The position numbers and the translations under genes are program-made. Below, piece by piece: positions 2,210-13,175 of a stretch of DNA of 35,002 nt (position 1 is the stretch's first letter; the number at the start of each line of letters is the position of its first letter). Origin of the DNA: a virus; UHGV virus genome UHGV-0140552; one strand, written 5' to 3'. Under the pieces are notes generated by a model. The model was not told where the DNA came from and did not search any database. It was given only the letters and a program-made list of their open reading frames with translations.

Positions 2210-4401
2210 TATGCTTTCTCCTCGGCTTTATTCAGTTCTTTAATGCGCCCATCTTTGATGGAGATGAGTCGGCGGAGCCGGCCAGACAGATAACGTTCAT
2301 GCTGCGTGTCGCCGTTGGCCTGGGCGGCTTTAATGTGAACATCGATCTCACGTGCGATAGGGGAAAACACACCGTTGATTTCGTTCACCGTCACGCCATG
2401 CGCCAGGGTATTAGCAACGCGGCTTAATTTATCGTCAAACTCCTGGCGGAGCCGTGCTGCATCTTCGGCTGATTCGCTGGCGTTCTTCAGGTCAAACTCG
2501 GCCTTGTTCTTCTGGCGGTACTCCAGATTGTCGTAAAGCCCCATAAAGATATCGCCACTGAATCCGAGGCCGGATAACGCTTTTTTGGTCGCATCTGTCA
2601 GTGATTTTTTGGCTGCTTCGCCGTCGCAGGTGATCCCGTATTTACTACCGTAAATGTAGGGTGTACAGCCGTATGCTGTTTCCTCACCTCGTACTCCGTT
2701 CAGGATGTACCAGAGCCGGACAGTCACAACATGGTGCTGTTCGTTGACGGTATTACCATTCCCATCAAGAACCAGCTCCCACGATGCGTTGTTGTCTTTG
2801 CCTTTTACTTGCCGAGTGATCGGCGCGCCAATATCGAAACGCTCTTCAACAATATCCACGCCCCAGCCGATGCCCTTAGGGCCAAACTCACGTGTGGCAA
2901 GCATGGTCATGTAGGTACCGTTGATCGAGGTGCCACCGCCGTTCTGTGTGAAAGCCTTAGTAAACCTTTCGTCGGTTTTAAATACGCGTTTCCAGAGGTC
3001 TAAATTGTCTTCCCCGATGATTGGTTTTCCGACAGCCTGCACAACATCCTCAGCGTTAGGCAGGCTTTCAGCGTGAGCGATTTGTTTTGCTAAACGCTCG
3101 GAATCATCAGCCAGTTTTTCAGCCTTAACGCTTAACTTCTCTTCCGGCTCTGCACCTTCACCAGAGGCATATACGCCATAACCCATATCATTGAGCGTCT
3201 CACGCGCCTGTTTGGCCTGGGTGTCGGTTACAACCGGCTGCTGCGCTTCCACTTTTTCGCCCACGTTTGAGGCGGTATTTTGCGTCGCCTCTGGTTGTTT
3301 AACGGATCCTGTCTCGGTTTCCTCAAAGCGGCCGTTGGCCGCCAGCCATGAATCGATATGGCGGCGCAGGCTGTCAGGGAAATGGTAGGTATCTTTCGCC
3401 GGTACGTTTTGTACCACGCCGAAGATGCTGGCGCGGTCGTATTTGAGTATCTGCGGCGTGGTGTGCAGCGATGCTGACCAGCGTTTAAAATCTTCCCGGT
3501 CATCGGAAATCATCTTCTTAGCGTCCAGAAGGTTTCCGGATAGTACCGGCGCATCAGGCGCCAGCGGGAGAAGGGCGGTAGCGATCTCCTGATCCAGCGT
3601 TGCATAAGTGTGTTTATATCCGCGCTTAGAAATTACCACGGGTGTTTTATCATCGGTGCTGGTGCTGGTGCTGGTGCTGGTGCTGGTGCTGGTGCTGGTG
3701 CTGGTGCTGAGAGCGGTATTTTTATATACGCCGGGGGCCAGTTCGTCGCGCTTGCCCGGATTCTCAAGCCAGCGTTTAACGAACTGAGAGATAGCCGCTT
3801 TGCCCGGCGTCTGGTTTTCAAAGTGGGAGAAAATACCCTGAATAAGATTGTTCAGACCTTCCACATGCATGCTTTGAACCGGGAAGTTATTTTGCAGGGC
3901 ACACAGAACATTAAAGTTAAAGCGATCTTCCTCTTCAAATTCCCCATCGTGGTTTTTCAGATTATCCAGATAATCCACAACCTGAGAATAAAGATGGCCA
4001 TCAATCGCCGCGGTACTAAAAAGCAGGACGGCAGCAAAGCGTTCATCAGGGGAAACGGTCATCAGGTCGATCACTTCATCGTCGGCAGGTAAACCTGCAC
4101 CACTTCCGGAAGCGCTATCCTGCGCAGTAGAAACCCATTTTTCACCGTCAAAAGTATGCTGCTGGGCGAATGACTCATCGAACTGGCCAACGGTCGGCAG
4201 CGGCTGGCCTTCAACGTGTTCCCACAGTTTCGGTTTGAAATAGTTGTCACCATTGGCCGGGTATGATTCCCAGAGTTTGCCGGTCATAATGCTTTCGGCC
4301 ACTTTTTTGTTTGGCGCATCGATGGCGATCGCCAGCTGCACGGCGCCGCAGTCTTTAATCGCCGATTTCTTTGGCTCAAATGAGCCGTTGTAGATGGTCA
4401 T
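2209..4401 (-). CDS. Large multidomain protein (730 aa) with C-terminal Rad52/Sak-type single-strand annealing domain and an internal (Ser-Thr)9 linker
   Basis: Segment GCTPYIYGSKYGITCDGEAAKKSLTDATKKALSGLGFSGDIFMGLYDN matches the Rad52-family signature (K-x-A/S-V/L-TD-x-x-K-K/R-AL-x-x-F/L-G). Start placed at ATG 4399-4401, which has the GAGGAAAGACCA RBS motif; the ORF-track start at 4434 is a GTG without a Shine-Dalgarno. Confidence 0.75.
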   Translation of the reverse strand: MTIYNGSFEPKKSAIKDCGAVQLAIAIDAPNKKVAESIMTGKLWESYPANGDNYFKPKLWEHVEGQPLPTVGQFDESFAQQHTFDGEKWVSTAQDSASGSGAGLPADDEVIDLMTVSPDERFAAVLLFSTAAIDGHLYSQVVDYLDNLKNHDGEFEEEDRFNFNVLCALQNNFPVQSMHVEGLNNLIQGIFSHFENQTPGKAAISQFVKRWLENPGKRDELAPGVYKNTALSTSTSTSTSTSTSTSTSTDDKTPVVISKRGYKHTYATLDQEIATALLPLAPDAPVLSGNLLDAKKMISDDREDFKRWSASLHTTPQILKYDRASIFGVVQNVPAKDTYHFPDSLRRHIDSWLAANGRFEETETGSVKQPEATQNTASNVGEKVEAQQPVVTDTQAKQARETLNDMGYGVYASGEGAEPEEKLSVKAEKLADDSERLAKQIAHAESLPNAEDVVQAVGKPIIGEDNLDLWKRVFKTDERFTKAFTQNGGGTSINGTYMTMLATREFGPKGIGWGVDIVEERFDIGAPITRQVKGKDNNASWELVLDGNGNTVNEQHHVVTVRLWYILNGVRGEETAYGCTPYIYGSKYGITCDGEAAKKSLTDATKKALSGLGFSGDIFMGLYDNLEYRQKNKAEFDLKNASESAEDAARLRQEFDDKLSRVANTLAHGVTVNEINGVFSPIAREIDVHIKAAQANGDTQHERYLSGRLRRLISIKDGRIKELNKAEEKA
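3655..3708. repeat. Perfect hexanucleotide tandem repeat (GGTGCT)x9, in-frame within the 730-aa gene, encoding (ST)9
   Basis: Read directly: nine contiguous GGTGCT units on the plus strand; on the minus coding strand AGCACC gives S-T repeats. Confidence 0.95.
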
Positions 4402-4445: not shown

Positions 4446-4769
4446 TTAAAACGGTACGTCGCTTTCTTCAATTGGAGAGTGATCGATGCACAGCAGCTGC
4501 TGAATCTGGTCTTCAATAACACCCAGCTCCTTCTTTGCTTCGGCAGAGATTTTCTCTTTCTTCGCACGAAGGGCATTAACCTGCATACCAATAATGTCGA
4601 TTGGCTCTAAAGCTGGAATGGCAACCTCTACCGTTTTGGTAGTAACGAGGACATACAGATCAGGGTATTGCTGTGACATGTCACAGGTGAATGAGTGATA
4701 AGACGTTGGTAGATATGGGTTGGTTGTGGCCATAACGTAAATAGTTACGGGGATGGTAAGCGCTTCCAT
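4446..4769 (-). CDS. Hypothetical protein (107 aa), first gene of the leftward early operon; C-terminus ...PIEESDVPF
   Basis: ORF with a strong AAGGAG Shine-Dalgarno 5 nt upstream of the ATG at 4769. No recognisable domain. Confidence 0.7.
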   Translation of the reverse strand: MEALTIPVTIYVMATTNPYLPTSYHSFTCDMSQQYPDLYVLVTTKTVEVAIPALEPIDIIGMQVNALRAKKEKISAEAKKELGVIEDQIQQLLCIDHSPIEESDVPF

Positions 4770-5263: not shown

Positions 5264-5650
5264 TTATTTTTGTTTGCGGGCTTGCAGTAACTCCTCAAAT
5301 AAACGATTGAAACCGTCTACTTTTTCGCGAAGTTCCGTTAAATGCCGCTCTTTTTCAGATTCTGGGAGTGACGAAAAGAGTTTTAAAAGCTCTGTTTCTC
5401 GTTCATCTAATGGCGGCGGGGTGTCTACCGGGGTTCCCGGAGTGGCGGCTTCATCGCCGTAAAGTATCCAGGTAGGGCTGCATTGAAGTGCGTTACTTAA
5501 AGCGAAAAGGTTTTTTCCGCCAGGCTCACTATCACCGGTCTCCCACTGGGAGATAGTGACGTGCGCGACGTTAACCAGCTTCGCTAAAGCGCGCTGAGTA
5601 AGTTTGAGATCTTTTCTACGCGCTCTGATGCGCTCACCTGGCATTGTCAT
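5264..5650 (-). CDS. Phage repressor, HTH XRE-family (128 aa), RacR/CI-like, no S24 peptidase domain
   Basis: N-terminal HTH (LTQRALAKLVNVAHVTISQWETG). Divergent from a cro-like gene, with palindromic operators in the 80-bp intergenic region. Too short to carry a LexA-like autocleavage domain. Confidence 0.85.
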   Translation of the reverse strand: MTMPGERIRARRKDLKLTQRALAKLVNVAHVTISQWETGDSEPGGKNLFALSNALQCSPTWILYGDEAATPGTPVDTPPPLDERETELLKLFSSLPESEKERHLTELREKVDGFNRLFEELLQARKQK

Positions 5651-5652
5651 AG

Positions 5653-5666
5653 TTAGATAATTCTAA
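5653..5666. promoter_or_regulatory. Operator-like 14-bp palindrome TTAGATAATTCTAA (OR-like, proximal to the repressor gene)
   Basis: Palindrome read from sequence. On the minus strand it contains TAGAAT about 10 nt upstream of the repressor ATG, suggesting a leaderless PRM-like transcript. Confidence 0.6.
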
Positions 5667-5672
5667 ATTTCC

Positions 5673-5701
5673 TTGACTTCGTTATCTCGAACACCTAATT
5701 T
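5673..5701 (+). promoter_or_regulatory. Putative early-right promoter (PR-like): -35 TTGACT, 17-bp spacer, -10 TAATTT
   Basis: Sequence match. The -10 is weak, so this is a tentative call. Confidence 0.35.
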
Positions 5702-5702
5702 G

Positions 5703-5716
5703 TTAGAAAAATCTAA
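5703..5716. promoter_or_regulatory. Operator-like 14-bp palindrome TTAGAAAAATCTAA (OR-like, proximal to the cro-like gene)
   Basis: Palindrome lies between the putative PR -10 and the CAGGAGGG Shine-Dalgarno of the cro-like gene. Confidence 0.6.
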
Positions 5717-5730
5717 CAGGAGGGTGTTTC

Positions 5731-5925
5731 ATGTTAACAACTGATGCGATCAAATATTTTGGTAGTAAGAGAAAACTGGCTGAGGCCGCTGGCGTTAAGG
5801 CTCCTACTGTCTATGCGTGGGGGCGTTTGGTTCCTGAAGGTAAAGCGGCTCGTTTGTCTCTGATGACTGATGGCGAACTTGTTTATGACCCAAAGGCTTA
5901 CCAACTGCCAGCCAAATCAGCTTAA
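5731..5925 (+). CDS. Cro-like / YdaS-family small HTH regulator (64 aa)
   Basis: Small ORF divergent from the repressor, with a strong Shine-Dalgarno (CAGGAGGG). HTH-like segment KRKLAEAAGVKAPTVYAWG. Same arrangement as racR-ydaS in the E. coli Rac prophage. Confidence 0.75.
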   Translation: MLTTDAIKYFGSKRKLAEAAGVKAPTVYAWGRLVPEGKAARLSLMTDGELVYDPKAYQLPAKSA

Positions 5926-10754: not shown

Positions 10755-10919
10755 CCATGAATAACAGTACACAGGATTTTATAGACTATGAGTTCTCCAT
10801 GCTTCAAACTGTCACTATAGATTTTGTACTGACGGTATGTTAAAAATGTAGATGGATTTTTGTTTGACAAAAATTTAACCGCTTGTGTCCTTAAGAGTTT
10901 TATTAAAACTAGGTTTTTT

Positions 10920-11402
10920 ATGATAAAAATAGATGAACTAAAAGAAGCCGTTTCTACTTTTGATGACGTTTCTGATCTCAATGTTTCTAACAAAGGAGTT
11001 AATTTTAAATACCAAGGCGTTCAGACTATTATTAATACGTGTGAGAGTGATAAAATTTCAGCGAATAAAATAATTGTTATGAATTCTTTTAAGTCCCCGG
11101 AATCTATTGACAGTAAGATTATGGGTGAAAAAATCGCGGAGATTGTTAATATGACTTCGCTGTCCCCTGCGAAGACTACTTATGTACACTTCCCTGATGA
11201 TGGTGGAGCATTCTTTTTTAGAAATATATTTTCGGATAAATTAAATGCTTTGGAATATAATGACGATGTTTCCAGGCGGCTATTCTTATCTAATTTGAAG
11301 GTTGTTCTTCTCGGAATGATGCTGGAGAATTATAACTGCTTTCATGATGTTAAAGAAGAGGCTTCGAAACTGTGTGAGGCGCTGAATGATGAAAGCAAAT
11401 GA
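10920..11402 (+). CDS. Hypothetical cytoplasmic protein (160 aa), gene 1 of an AT-rich two-gene cassette
   Basis: ORF in a markedly AT-rich island. First ATG at 10920 (the ORF track extends to a TTG at 10860). No recognisable motif. Confidence 0.6.
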   Translation: MIKIDELKEAVSTFDDVSDLNVSNKGVNFKYQGVQTIINTCESDKISANKIIVMNSFKSPESIDSKIMGEKIAEIVNMTSLSPAKTTYVHFPDDGGAFFFRNIFSDKLNALEYNDDVSRRLFLSNLKVVLLGMMLENYNCFHDVKEEASKLCEALNDESK

Positions 11403-11787
11403 TGCTCCACGTATAATTATACAGCTGATTTTAAGTGCGTTTGTATTTTTTGCTTTCTCTTTTAAATATAAGGCCCAATTAATAGGGTTTCTTTCTGAAC
11501 AGGTATATTACCAATTGTTGATAATAACAGTCATATTGACTGGGTATTTTTCACGCTGGATTGATGAGTTGCGTATTTTCTTATGTCATCATTTTATGAT
11601 GACTTGCAATAAGCAATATAAAGTAAAGTATCTCAAGGACAATGCATCGGTTTTGTTAAAGCAGGCAGAGAATGCTAATATTTCAGAAGAAGCGAAAGCA
11701 ATGGTTTCTGAAATGACTGGTTCAGATTTTGAATTGGAGGTTAAAATTAAATCTTTAAGTGAGGAAATAAAAAGAATAAAAGGTTGA
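11386..11787 (+). CDS. Predicted membrane protein with 2 TM helices and a C-terminal coiled coil (133 aa), gene 2 of the AT-rich cassette
   Basis: Two hydrophobic segments (IIIQLILSAFVFFAFSF; QLLIITVILTGYF). Overlaps the upstream gene by 17 nt, implying co-translation. Confidence 0.65.
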   Translation: MMKANDAPRIIIQLILSAFVFFAFSFKYKAQLIGFLSEQVYYQLLIITVILTGYFSRWIDELRIFLCHHFMMTCNKQYKVKYLKDNASVLLKQAENANISEEAKAMVSEMTGSDFELEVKIKSLSEEIKRIKG

Positions 11788-11831
11788 TGGAGTGTTTATT
11801 ATTTGAGATAGGACTAATTATGAATTGTTAA

Positions 11832-11866
11832 ATAAATGAAGAGGTGATCTCACTCTCTTCATTTAT
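11832..11866 (+). terminator. Perfect 12-bp inverted repeat ATAAATGAAGAG / CTCTTCATTTAT with 11-nt loop; possible cassette terminator or protein-binding palindrome
   Basis: Read from sequence, 45 nt downstream of the cassette stop codon. The U-tract is weak. Confidence 0.4.
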
Positions 11867-11940
11867 CATCTAGTAAGTTATCAGTTCCAGTGGACAGAAA
11901 AAATAATATTTTACGTTGAGATAATTCCCTATGCATAGGT

Positions 11941-12147
11941 TCAGAAAATAATAGGGATGAGATGTAGGTTACTGGACAAAAATCGAGCTAGTAGGCCGAG
12001 TACATCGCTATGCTGATCCGATAGGATGATGCGCGAGTTAGTGGCCACATCAAATCGATCAGCAAACGCCTGTGTGGAAAGTGCGATGAGTCGCTGCCAA
12101 TCATCTCCTGCCCGTGTGCTTAAACTGTCAGCATAGCGAACAACCAT
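11941..12147 (-). CDS. Doubtful small ORF (68 aa from ATG 12147)
   Basis: ORF without a convincing Shine-Dalgarno. Could be a gene remnant. Confidence 0.25.
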   Translation of the reverse strand: MVVRYADSLSTRAGDDWQRLIALSTQAFADRFDVATNSRIILSDQHSDVLGLLARFLSSNLHLIPIIF

Positions 12148-12278
12148 ACCAGACAAAACAGAACCGTCAGAAATGGCGGTTTTCTTTATAATTCAATCGG
12201 ATATTTTGAGGTTTATTGTTGATTTTTAACGATTCGTGCTCTTAAAAATTTGCGCTCACTGTCAGTTGGTAGTATATA

Positions 12279-12298
12279 TACTGTAATTTTATACAGTA
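12279..12298. promoter_or_regulatory. LexA (SOS) box TACTGT-AATTTTAT-ACAGTA
   Basis: Perfect CTGT-N8-ACAG with the flanking TA/TA of the E. coli-type consensus TACTGTATATATATACAGTA. Overlaps a candidate promoter (-35 TTGGTA 12266-12271, -10 TATACA 12290-12295) and lies 20 nt upstream of a GTG start. Confidence 0.7.
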
Positions 12299-12318
12299 TT
12301 GTTGTTGAGGGAGAGGTA

Positions 12319-12510
12319 GTGGTTGATAAGAAAGACGCAGGAGACCTTCTCCCCGACGATGGTGATGTACTGATAACGTGTGAAAATGGGAAGATTAAGA
12401 AGACCAGAATTGTCCATTCCGATGAGCACGTAGCGACACTTAACGCGTTGTTTGAATTAGCTAAATTGACGGGTTATACCATTATCAAACCAGACGGCAA
12501 TATGCTATAA
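12319..12510 (+). CDS. Small protein (63 aa, GTG start) under the LexA box; candidate SOS-controlled antirepressor or induction factor
   Basis: GGGAGAGG Shine-Dalgarno 5-6 nt upstream of GTG 12319. The longer ORF-track call would place the LexA box inside the coding region. Confidence 0.5.
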   Translation: MVDKKDAGDLLPDDGDVLITCENGKIKKTRIVHSDEHVATLNALFELAKLTGYTIIKPDGNML

Positions 12511-12578
12511 TTACCCCGTTGGCCTGAACACCCAACACCATGTAATTCTGAACAATTGCTGCGCTAAAGGGGAACCCA

Positions 12579-13175
12579 ATGGCGCAGTATTCTTTTGTAA
12601 AAGCACCCGGCGGTGTATTAATTCCGGCAACGCCTGACGCCCGCGAATTCTTAGAAAAAAAAGTCCGCATGGGCGGTATTCTGTATGCGGATTTTAAACA
12701 GGCAAGGAACCCGGCATTTCACCGTAAATTTTTTGCCCTCCTGAATCTGGGATTTGATTACTGGCAACCTTCCGGCGGTGCAATATCGCCAGCCGATAAA
12801 AAACTGGTTCGTGGTTACGTGCAGCTGGTGGCCCACTATGCCGGGCATGCCGACACATTGCAGGAACTGGCGGATCAGTATCTGCGCGATGAGGCAGAAA
12901 AACGCGCCGGGAATATCAGCGCGGTTAAATCGTTTGAAGCTTTCCGTTCCTGGGTAACTATCGAAGCCGGTTTTTATACCGAATACCAGATGCCTGATGG
13001 CACCACCCGCAAGGAACCCAAATCCATATCGTTCGCAAAAATGGACGATGTAGAATTTTCCCAGCTGTACAAATCCGTATTAGACGTCCTCTGGAATTTT
13101 ATTTTATTCCGCACCTTCCCTAATCAGCAGGCAGCAGAAAACGCAGCCTCTCAGCTTTTCAGTTATGCGGCCTGA
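12579..13175 (+). CDS. Conserved nin-region phage protein (198 aa), possibly DUF1367-like
   Basis: Good Shine-Dalgarno (AAAGGGGA) and coding-like composition. The family name is a tentative recollection. Confidence 0.6.
   Translation: MAQYSFVKAPGGVLIPATPDAREFLEKKVRMGGILYADFKQARNPAFHRKFFALLNLGFDYWQPSGGAISPADKKLVRGYVQLVAHYAGHADTLQELADQYLRDEAEKRAGNISAVKSFEAFRSWVTIEAGFYTEYQMPDGTTRKEPKSISFAKMDDVEFSQLYKSVLDVLWNFILFRTFPNQQAAENAASQLFSYAA

Follow-up and report, generated by a model that had tools for sequence, protein, structure and literature searches.

A 63-residue protein behind a LexA box in a Klebsiella-type lambdoid prophage: a predicted SOS-controlled antirepressor related to the Gifsy, Fels-1 and Rem proteins

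Described antirepressor systems

The antirepressors GfoA/GfhA (Gifsy-1/-3) and GftA (Gifsy-2) of the Gifsy prophages are encoded in a LexA-controlled dinI-antirepressor-irsA operon. Each Gifsy prophage has a terminator-like palindrome in front of its LexA box (Lemire et al., 2011, PMC3121763). Deletions of dinI and irsA leave induction unaffected, the small antirepressor gene alone being sufficient. The antirepressor displaces the repressor from the DNA, most likely by forming an A2B2 complex with the repressor dimer, and induction was noted to be reversible in principle (Lemire et al., 2011, PMC3121763). GfoA and GfhA set a precedent for cross-reactivity, and the repressor GtgR is inactivated by GftA as well as by FsoA of Fels-1. 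The repressor on which FsoA acts is a foreign one, and Fels-1 can be induced without FsoA (Lemire et al., 2011, PMC3121763).

In the cryptic prophage Qin of E. coli, overproduction of Rem relieves the repression exerted by DicA 165-fold (Ragunathan and Vanderpool, 2023, PMC10448788). The signal inducing Rem is published as unknown (PMC10448788), which is consistent with the scan of approximately 1 kb around rem (E. coli K-12 Qin, L004, 4400-5400), where no LexA-type box of the form CTG-N10-CAG occurs. The intergenic region between rem and hokD contains a terminator-like hairpin, AAACCCGCCGAAGCGGGTT.

The logic proposed here is also that of Tum in coliphage 186 and of AntC in N15. A LexA-repressed promoter (p95) drives an antirepressor, which blocks DNA binding by a non-cleavable repressor. 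The mechanism has been known since 2011, and the protein family is also known.

Comparison of the locus with the described systems

The window is the whole stretch of DNA analysed, the 35,002-nt virus genome UHGV-0140552. It starts inside an integrase gene, followed by genes for a RecE-like exonuclease, the repressor and Cro, cII, and O-like and DnaB-like replication proteins. After the replication genes come a methyltransferase gene, a variable two-gene insert, a terminator-like hairpin, a LexA promoter and a gene for a 63-aa protein. A DUF1367 gene and an HNH-like gene follow on the 3′ side, and then the structural genes. With a probability of about 80%, the 63-aa protein is predicted from the sequence to be an SOS-controlled antirepressor of this Klebsiella-type lambdoid prophage.

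The likeness to the Gifsy system concerns size, start codon, position and partner. The protein has 63 aa, compared with 73 aa in GftA and 82 aa in the GfoA-type ORF of SEN34, and non-AUG start codons are used in both systems. Its gene is located behind a terminator-like hairpin and a LexA box, 3′ of the replication genes and directly 5′ of DUF1367/irsA; the order in Gifsy-2 is terminator, LexA box, dinI, gftA and irsA homolog. The partner is a short repressor consisting of a helix-turn-helix (HTH) region only and homologous to GtgR. In contrast to Gifsy, the window lacks dinI, so that the antirepressor gene comes first behind the promoter. The protein has low sequence identity to GfoA and no direct match to GftA, the host is Klebsiella/Raoultella, and the repressor is nearer to DicA than to GtgR.

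FsoA is the closest characterised homolog (55.5 bits) and shares the core G-R-V-L-x-x-x-E-N-G ... D-E-H-[IV]-A-x-L ... E-[LM]-A-x-x-A-G. However, fsoA belongs to the early-left operon of Fels-1 under the phage's own S24 repressor and has no LexA box nearby. For Rem and DicA, both partners are homologous to those of the window (63% identity to DicA, 26.4 bits for Rem), but Rem has 83 aa with an extra N-terminal part. Tum has no sequence relationship to the window protein; it comprises 146 aa with a DinI-like C-terminal half. The large Ant-type proteins (P22_AR_N, KilA-N, Rha) carry approximately 50 C-terminal residues homologous to the whole 63-aa protein, whereas the window protein represents the module alone, without an N-terminal domain and under LexA control.

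LexA box and promoter

The LexA (SOS) box TACTGTAATTTTATACAGTA was read directly at 12279-12298 (no strand assigned) and covers the predicted transcription start. Both half-sites, TACTGTA and TACAGTA, are perfect. The three departures from TACTG(TA)5CAGTA all lie within the central AT-rich spacer. It is the sole site with up to three mismatches from the consensus in the 35-kb window. The chance expectation, obtained by scanning 100 shuffles of the window to three mismatches, had a mean of 0.01. The original prediction of a near-perfect E. coli-type SOS box is thus borne out.

The looser pattern CTGT-N8-ACAG occurs twice in the window, with 0.27 copies expected. The second copy (4671-4686), whose centre is GC-rich and which lies within an ORF, was rejected as a LexA box on both counts. 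It forms a perfect 16-bp palindrome, CTGTGACATGTCACAG, inside ORF 4446-4769 on the minus strand (phrog_2479, function unknown). Judged by its sequence, it is probably not a LexA site despite the formal fit and could be a binding site for another protein.

A probable -35 hexamer, TTGCGC (12250-12255, plus strand), is separated by a 17-nt spacer from a probable -10 hexamer, TATATA (12273-12278, plus strand), which directly abuts the box. As no gap separates the -10 hexamer from the box, the transcription start is predicted inside the LexA box, at about 12284-12287. The proposed overlap of the box with a plausible promoter therefore stands. Of the predicted span 12266-12510, the box and the ORF lie inside, and the probable -35 hexamer lies just outside.

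Conservation was assessed in 57 loci from viral contigs and one locus from a Raoultella genome, 58 loci being counted including the window. In all 58 loci, the box precedes the start codon by 35-44 nt. Immediately 5′ of the box, 32 of 34 distinct upstream variants have TTGC(N)(N)-17 nt-TATA(N)(N), while the spacer sequences vary; TTGC(N)(N) is the conserved form of the -35 hexamer, and the -10 hexamer reads TATAAA in many relatives. Box and ORF are retained even where the surrounding DNA is unrelated (L032, L053, L056, L064 and L065). A more distant branch of the family (L072) has TTGCAC-17-TATAAA and a LexA box 37 nt from the start codon.

A terminator-like hairpin, AGAACCGTCAGAAATGGCGGTTTT followed by CTTTAT (12160-12183, plus strand), is located just upstream of the promoter. 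It is predicted to insulate the SOS unit from upstream early-right transcription. A terminator-like palindrome before the LexA box is likewise visible in Gifsy-2 and SEN34. The minus-strand ORF 11941-12156 was considered as a member of the SOS unit and ruled out: it has no Pfam or PHROGs homologs, and the hairpin separates it from the box. The box is approximately 6.6 kb from the repressor gene and thus outside the immunity region.

A strict sigma-70 consensus scan called no promoter at the LexA box, which would suit a chance match or a non-functional box with the gene expressed only by early-right read-through. The A at position 6 of the -10 hexamer caused the scan to miss the -35/-10 pair. 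The expectation of only 0.01 such sites, the presence of the box in every locus with the hexamers at 17 nt in nearly all variants and amid unrelated flanks, the hairpin just upstream and the same architecture in the distant L072 branch all argue against a chance box, which is highly improbable.

In the wider family, the branch L067-L071 has a weaker CTGG-type box approximately 190 nt upstream. In the P0049 branch, no box was found directly upstream, and a weak CTG-type match occurs 135 nt upstream in two of three loci. No LexA box was detected in the 0.9-1.3 kb scanned around each of the genes for FsoA, Rem and a homolog from phi467. The mixed presence of boxes across the branches indicates that the module is used under LexA control and under other controls.

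The 63-aa gene

The gene extends from 12319 to 12510 on the plus strand, with GTG as start codon and TAA (12508-12510) as stop codon. Between the end of the LexA box and the GTG lie 20 nt, which contain the Shine-Dalgarno sequence GAGGGAGAGG (12307-12316, plus strand), a purine-rich G tract kept in all loci. The ORF has 63 codons for amino acids in 58/58 loci, with GTG as start in 57 and ATG in one. These observations confirm the predicted GTG-initiated ORF with a good Shine-Dalgarno sequence 20 nt 3′ of the box, and both the length and the spacing to the box are conserved.

A longer in-frame version starting at TTG (12250-12510, 86 aa) is listed for the window, and some gene calls in metagenomes give 86-107 aa. 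Such N-terminal extensions were ruled out, as they are unconserved and would cross both promoter and box. For 47 distinct coding sequences, the median pairwise dN/dS is 0.15 (910 pairs with dS > 0.15), and the ORF accordingly encodes a protein under purifying selection. A word-indexed search retrieved 36 homologs. Every source that names them calls them hypothetical, and the named source organisms are Klebsiella and Raoultella.

A site resembling a promoter, TTATCA-18-TATAAT preceded by TG (10/12 matches), overlaps the end of the gene at 12482-12511. As a consensus match, it could permit LexA-independent expression of the DUF1367 gene.

Protein family and structure model

Neither Pfam nor NCBIfam contains a family matching the 63-aa protein. 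Pfam searches gave no match to DinI and, even with E up to 10, none to P22_AR_N, KilA-N or ANT (KilAC). For one homolog, P0013, the precomputed annotation gives accession PF27490, an entry outside the Pfam copy searched. In PHROGs, the protein is assigned to phrog_340 (function unknown, E 5e-23) and weakly matches two entries annotated 'anti-repressor' at their C-terminal ends. When the window family was used as a profile in an exhaustive search, 67 representative clusters were obtained at E ≤ 0.001. Most of these proteins have 55-100 aa and several 177-285 aa; a few very long repetitive ones look spurious.

A family HMM was built from the small proteins of the profile search, seeded by relatives of the window protein only, and scored against a background of 3,548 ORFs. 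FsoA of Fels-1 reached 55.5 bits (E 6e-16), the GfoA-type protein of SEN34 30.7 bits (E 3e-8) and Rem of Qin 26.4 bits (E 7e-7). The best background ORF had 8.2 bits and GftA 6.6 bits, both not significant. Direct BLASTP gave no alignment between the 63-aa protein and GftA, which is joined to the family indirectly, via FsoA and the phi467 homolog. The identities of GftA (Gifsy-2 ORF 11464-11685) and FsoA (Fels-1 ORF 3494-3730) were confirmed by a published primer table, and the GfoA-type protein (SEN34 ORF 2310-2558) was checked against it (Lemire et al., 2011, PMC3121763). Tum of phage 186 obtained no score, the best ORF of that phage having 6 bits, and was ruled out as a relative.

The original prediction described the small protein as not obviously similar to known antirepressors. 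This view is overturned by the profile-level homology to FsoA, the GfoA-type protein and Rem, by which the protein is a previously unannotated relative of the Gifsy/Fels-1 and E. coli Rem antirepressors. The similarity to Rem is modest, and family membership does not fix the target of the protein. In the literature searched, no paper dedicated to the 63-aa clade was found.

KilA-N, P22_AR_N and Rha proteins have their N-terminal domain first and the antirepressor module at the C-terminus. The proteins P0063, P0078, P0096, P0072, P0074 and P0093 possess the module as C-terminal domain and/or in two copies, the latter within one protein in P0072, P0074 and P0093. Module carriers of the KilA-N, P22_AR_N and Rha types are annotated as anti-repressors in PHROGs.

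AlphaFold2 (AF2) modelled the 63-aa protein as one compact unit with a pLDDT of 89.5 when a 51-sequence alignment was supplied. A model from a shallow alignment (pLDDT 61) was discarded in favour of this run. The model comprises a short helix, a beta-hairpin (residues 17-22 and 25-31), a helix (41-50) and a short C-terminal strand. Residues G24, R30, E36, H37 and G52-Y53 of the protein are conserved. Foldseek searches with the pLDDT 89.5 model against the PDB and BFVD returned nothing significant, nor did a sequence profile of the family match the PDB. Known structures thus lend no support to a particular binding mode.

Predicted partner repressor and immunity region

The predicted target is the immunity repressor encoded at 5264-5650 on the minus strand, a 128-aa protein assigned by Pfam and NCBIfam to the DicA family and to HTH families only. 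It had been considered too short for an S24 domain, and this is correct: the Pfam scan gave no match to Peptidase_S24 (PF00717), while the same scan does find S24 in the 258-aa repressor of another locus, L063. On the NCBIfam DicA model NF007257, it scores 186 bits against a cutoff of 101. Identity is 63% to E. coli DicA and 36% to GtgR, including the C-terminal segment LDE.E..LL.LF..LPE.EK. DicA repression is relieved by Rem (PMC10448788) and GtgR is inactivated by GftA and FsoA (PMC3121763). Both partners in the window are therefore homologous to both members of studied pairs.

Two copies of TTAGA-N4-TCTAA, at 5653-5666 and 5703-5716 (no strand assigned), lie 50 bp apart and are likely operators of the DicA-type repressor, as read from their sequence. 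Between them, a putative promoter TTGACT-17-TAATTT (5673-5701) faces cro. The Cro-like gene (P22_Cro; 5731-5925, plus strand) is the first of the early-right operon, which the repressor would silence. With palindromes flanking the cro-facing promoter, the immunity switch looks intact. The second palindrome starts right after the -10 hexamer, a geometry identical to that of the LexA box at the antirepressor promoter.

The repressor was readable in 47 related loci. In 46 of them, it has 128-154 aa and an HTH region only, and these repressors fall into seven clusters. The exception, L063 (IMGVR_UViG_2767802184_000002), encodes a 258-aa Peptidase_S24 repressor (2870-3646, minus strand) and retains the LexA-controlled antirepressor gene. 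This prophage would then have two SOS inputs, or its antirepressor would play a cross-talk role like that of FsoA in Fels-1.

Antirepressors 97-100% identical to that of the window adjoin repressor types of 128, 133, 137, 144, 151 and 154 aa. An alignment of these heteroimmune repressors has three invariant positions in the N-terminal 70 residues, and eleven invariant plus eight nearly invariant positions in residues 81-126. Since near-identical antirepressors accompany six heteroimmune types that share only the C-terminal helical motif, the antirepressor probably contacts this shared C-terminal part of the repressor and not the DNA-recognition helix.

The same observation suits a LexA-controlled antirepressor that serves mainly for cross-talk: it would inactivate the repressors of other prophages, synchronise induction in polylysogens and be dispensable or redundant at home, like FsoA in Fels-1. 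FsoA and the cross-reactivity of GfoA/GfhA are precedents (PMC3121763), and L063 joins the module with an S24 repressor that could induce alone. However, the resident repressor lacks an autocleavage domain in 46/47 loci, and the scanned parts of the window contain no other antirepressor candidate, which would leave the prophage without an evident SOS input. Cross-talk as the main role is unlikely, and cross-talk and self-induction are not mutually exclusive.

A broader proposal is offered tentatively and is itself rather doubtful. The 63-aa protein may be a pan-immunity inducer that docks on the shared repressor motif LL.LF..LPESEKERHL..L..KV.GF..LF.ELL, so that one SOS pulse would co-induce all prophages of this kind in a polylysogenic Klebsiella. 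The module of approximately 50 residues would then also be the repressor-binding effector domain of the KilA-N/P22_AR_N/Rha 'Ant' proteins. If true, this would unite the small and the large antirepressors mechanistically. Only this docking hypothesis and the connection with the C-termini of Ant-like proteins go further than the literature searched.

DUF1367 gene and intergenic hairpin

The DUF1367 gene (12579-13175, plus strand; PF07105, E 2.5e-84) is an ortholog of the Gifsy irsA homolog. Its product has 56% identity to the Gifsy-2 irsA homolog STM1020. The gene is next after the antirepressor gene in every locus and is probably the co-transcribed second gene of the SOS unit. A tblastn search with the Gifsy-2 DinI found nothing in the window or in any related locus.

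The constant neighbourhood and the absence of dinI, the first gene of the Gifsy operon, are compatible with a LexA promoter that mainly serves the downstream genes (DUF1367/IrsA, HNH-like and others). The 63-aa protein would then fulfil another SOS task, e.g. modulation of RecA in place of DinI, or a role in cell division or replication, and phrog_340 has no annotated function. However, the protein is homologous to FsoA, a GfoA-type protein and Rem and not to DinI, as neither Pfam nor tblastn gave a DinI match, the latter in all loci. In Gifsy, moreover, deletions of dinI and irsA are harmless to induction and the small gene alone is sufficient (PMC3121763). A promoter devoted mainly to the downstream genes is quite unlikely on these grounds.

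Between the antirepressor and the DUF1367 genes, a conserved hairpin, GTTGG-CCTGAACAC-CCAAC, is located at 12518-12536 (plus strand). The loop is conserved as CCTGAACA(A/C). The 5-bp stem covaries, with the pairs GTTGG/CCAAC, GCTGG/CCAGC, ACTGG/CCAGT (Gifsy-2) and AACGG/CCGTT (SEN34) and one G-U variant. Equivalents are found at about 11719-11737 in Gifsy-2 (L003) and about 2549-2568 in SEN34 (L008). No Rfam family matches the hairpin. The isrK match (17 bits, gathering score 50) and a DnaX match were sub-threshold and taken as chance. The hairpin may act in processing, in translational control or as a boxB-like element for the DUF1367 gene.

Proposed mechanism and significance

In undamaged cells, host LexA bound at 12279-12298 would cover the transcription start and keep the antirepressor gene silent. 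Upon DNA damage, RecA-stimulated cleavage of LexA would allow the promoter to fire. The 63-aa protein would be synthesized, and the same mRNA would probably also yield the DUF1367 protein. Binding to the 128-aa DicA-type repressor would then remove the latter from its operators and start the lytic programme. Because the repressor is not destroyed, induction would be reversible in principle. We infer that LexA occupies the box, that SOS induces the gene, that the two proteins bind each other and by which surface, and that the prophage needs the protein for induction.

The prophage most likely wakes via the known route of a LexA-controlled antirepressor rather than by self-cleavage of its repressor. 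Every sequence-testable element of the predicted pairing of a LexA-repressed small antirepressor with a non-cleavable repressor holds, from the conserved box and promoter to the DicA-family HTH-only repressor and the position corresponding to gftA/gfoA. The Gifsy-type model fits the conservation and homology data better than any rival.

A function is thereby proposed for phrog_340, a conserved hypothetical family of Klebsiella, Raoultella and relatives. Under the model, DNA-damaging antibiotics are predicted to induce a widespread class of Klebsiella prophages via LexA and an antirepressor; such induction would be reversible and might extend across immunity groups. This prediction is relevant to the synergy of prophages with antibiotics and to gene transfer in a genus of clinical importance. 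The gain is annotation and testable detail, with the repressor C-terminus as likely docking site and the module at the C-termini of Ant-like proteins, and no new principle.

Related records and a variable gene slot

Two records labelled as Stenotrophomonas phages, BUCT708 (OM816834.1, L002) and BUCT709 (OM816835.1), have approximately 85% DNA identity to the Klebsiella-type region. The LexA box of E. coli type and the antirepressor recur in both. The LexA of Xanthomonadales recognises a motif other than the E. coli type, and for this reason the host assignment of both records deserves checking.

Between the methyltransferase gene and the terminator of the SOS module, positions 10860-12156 form a slot with variable cargo. 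In BUCT708 (L002, 1059-2710), it holds genes for an RloB-domain protein and an ATP-binding protein on the opposite strand. In the window, it is occupied by two ORFs (180 and 133 aa) without an assigned function, which are shared only with L050 and L059. The difference in content points to a hotspot of accessory or defence genes.
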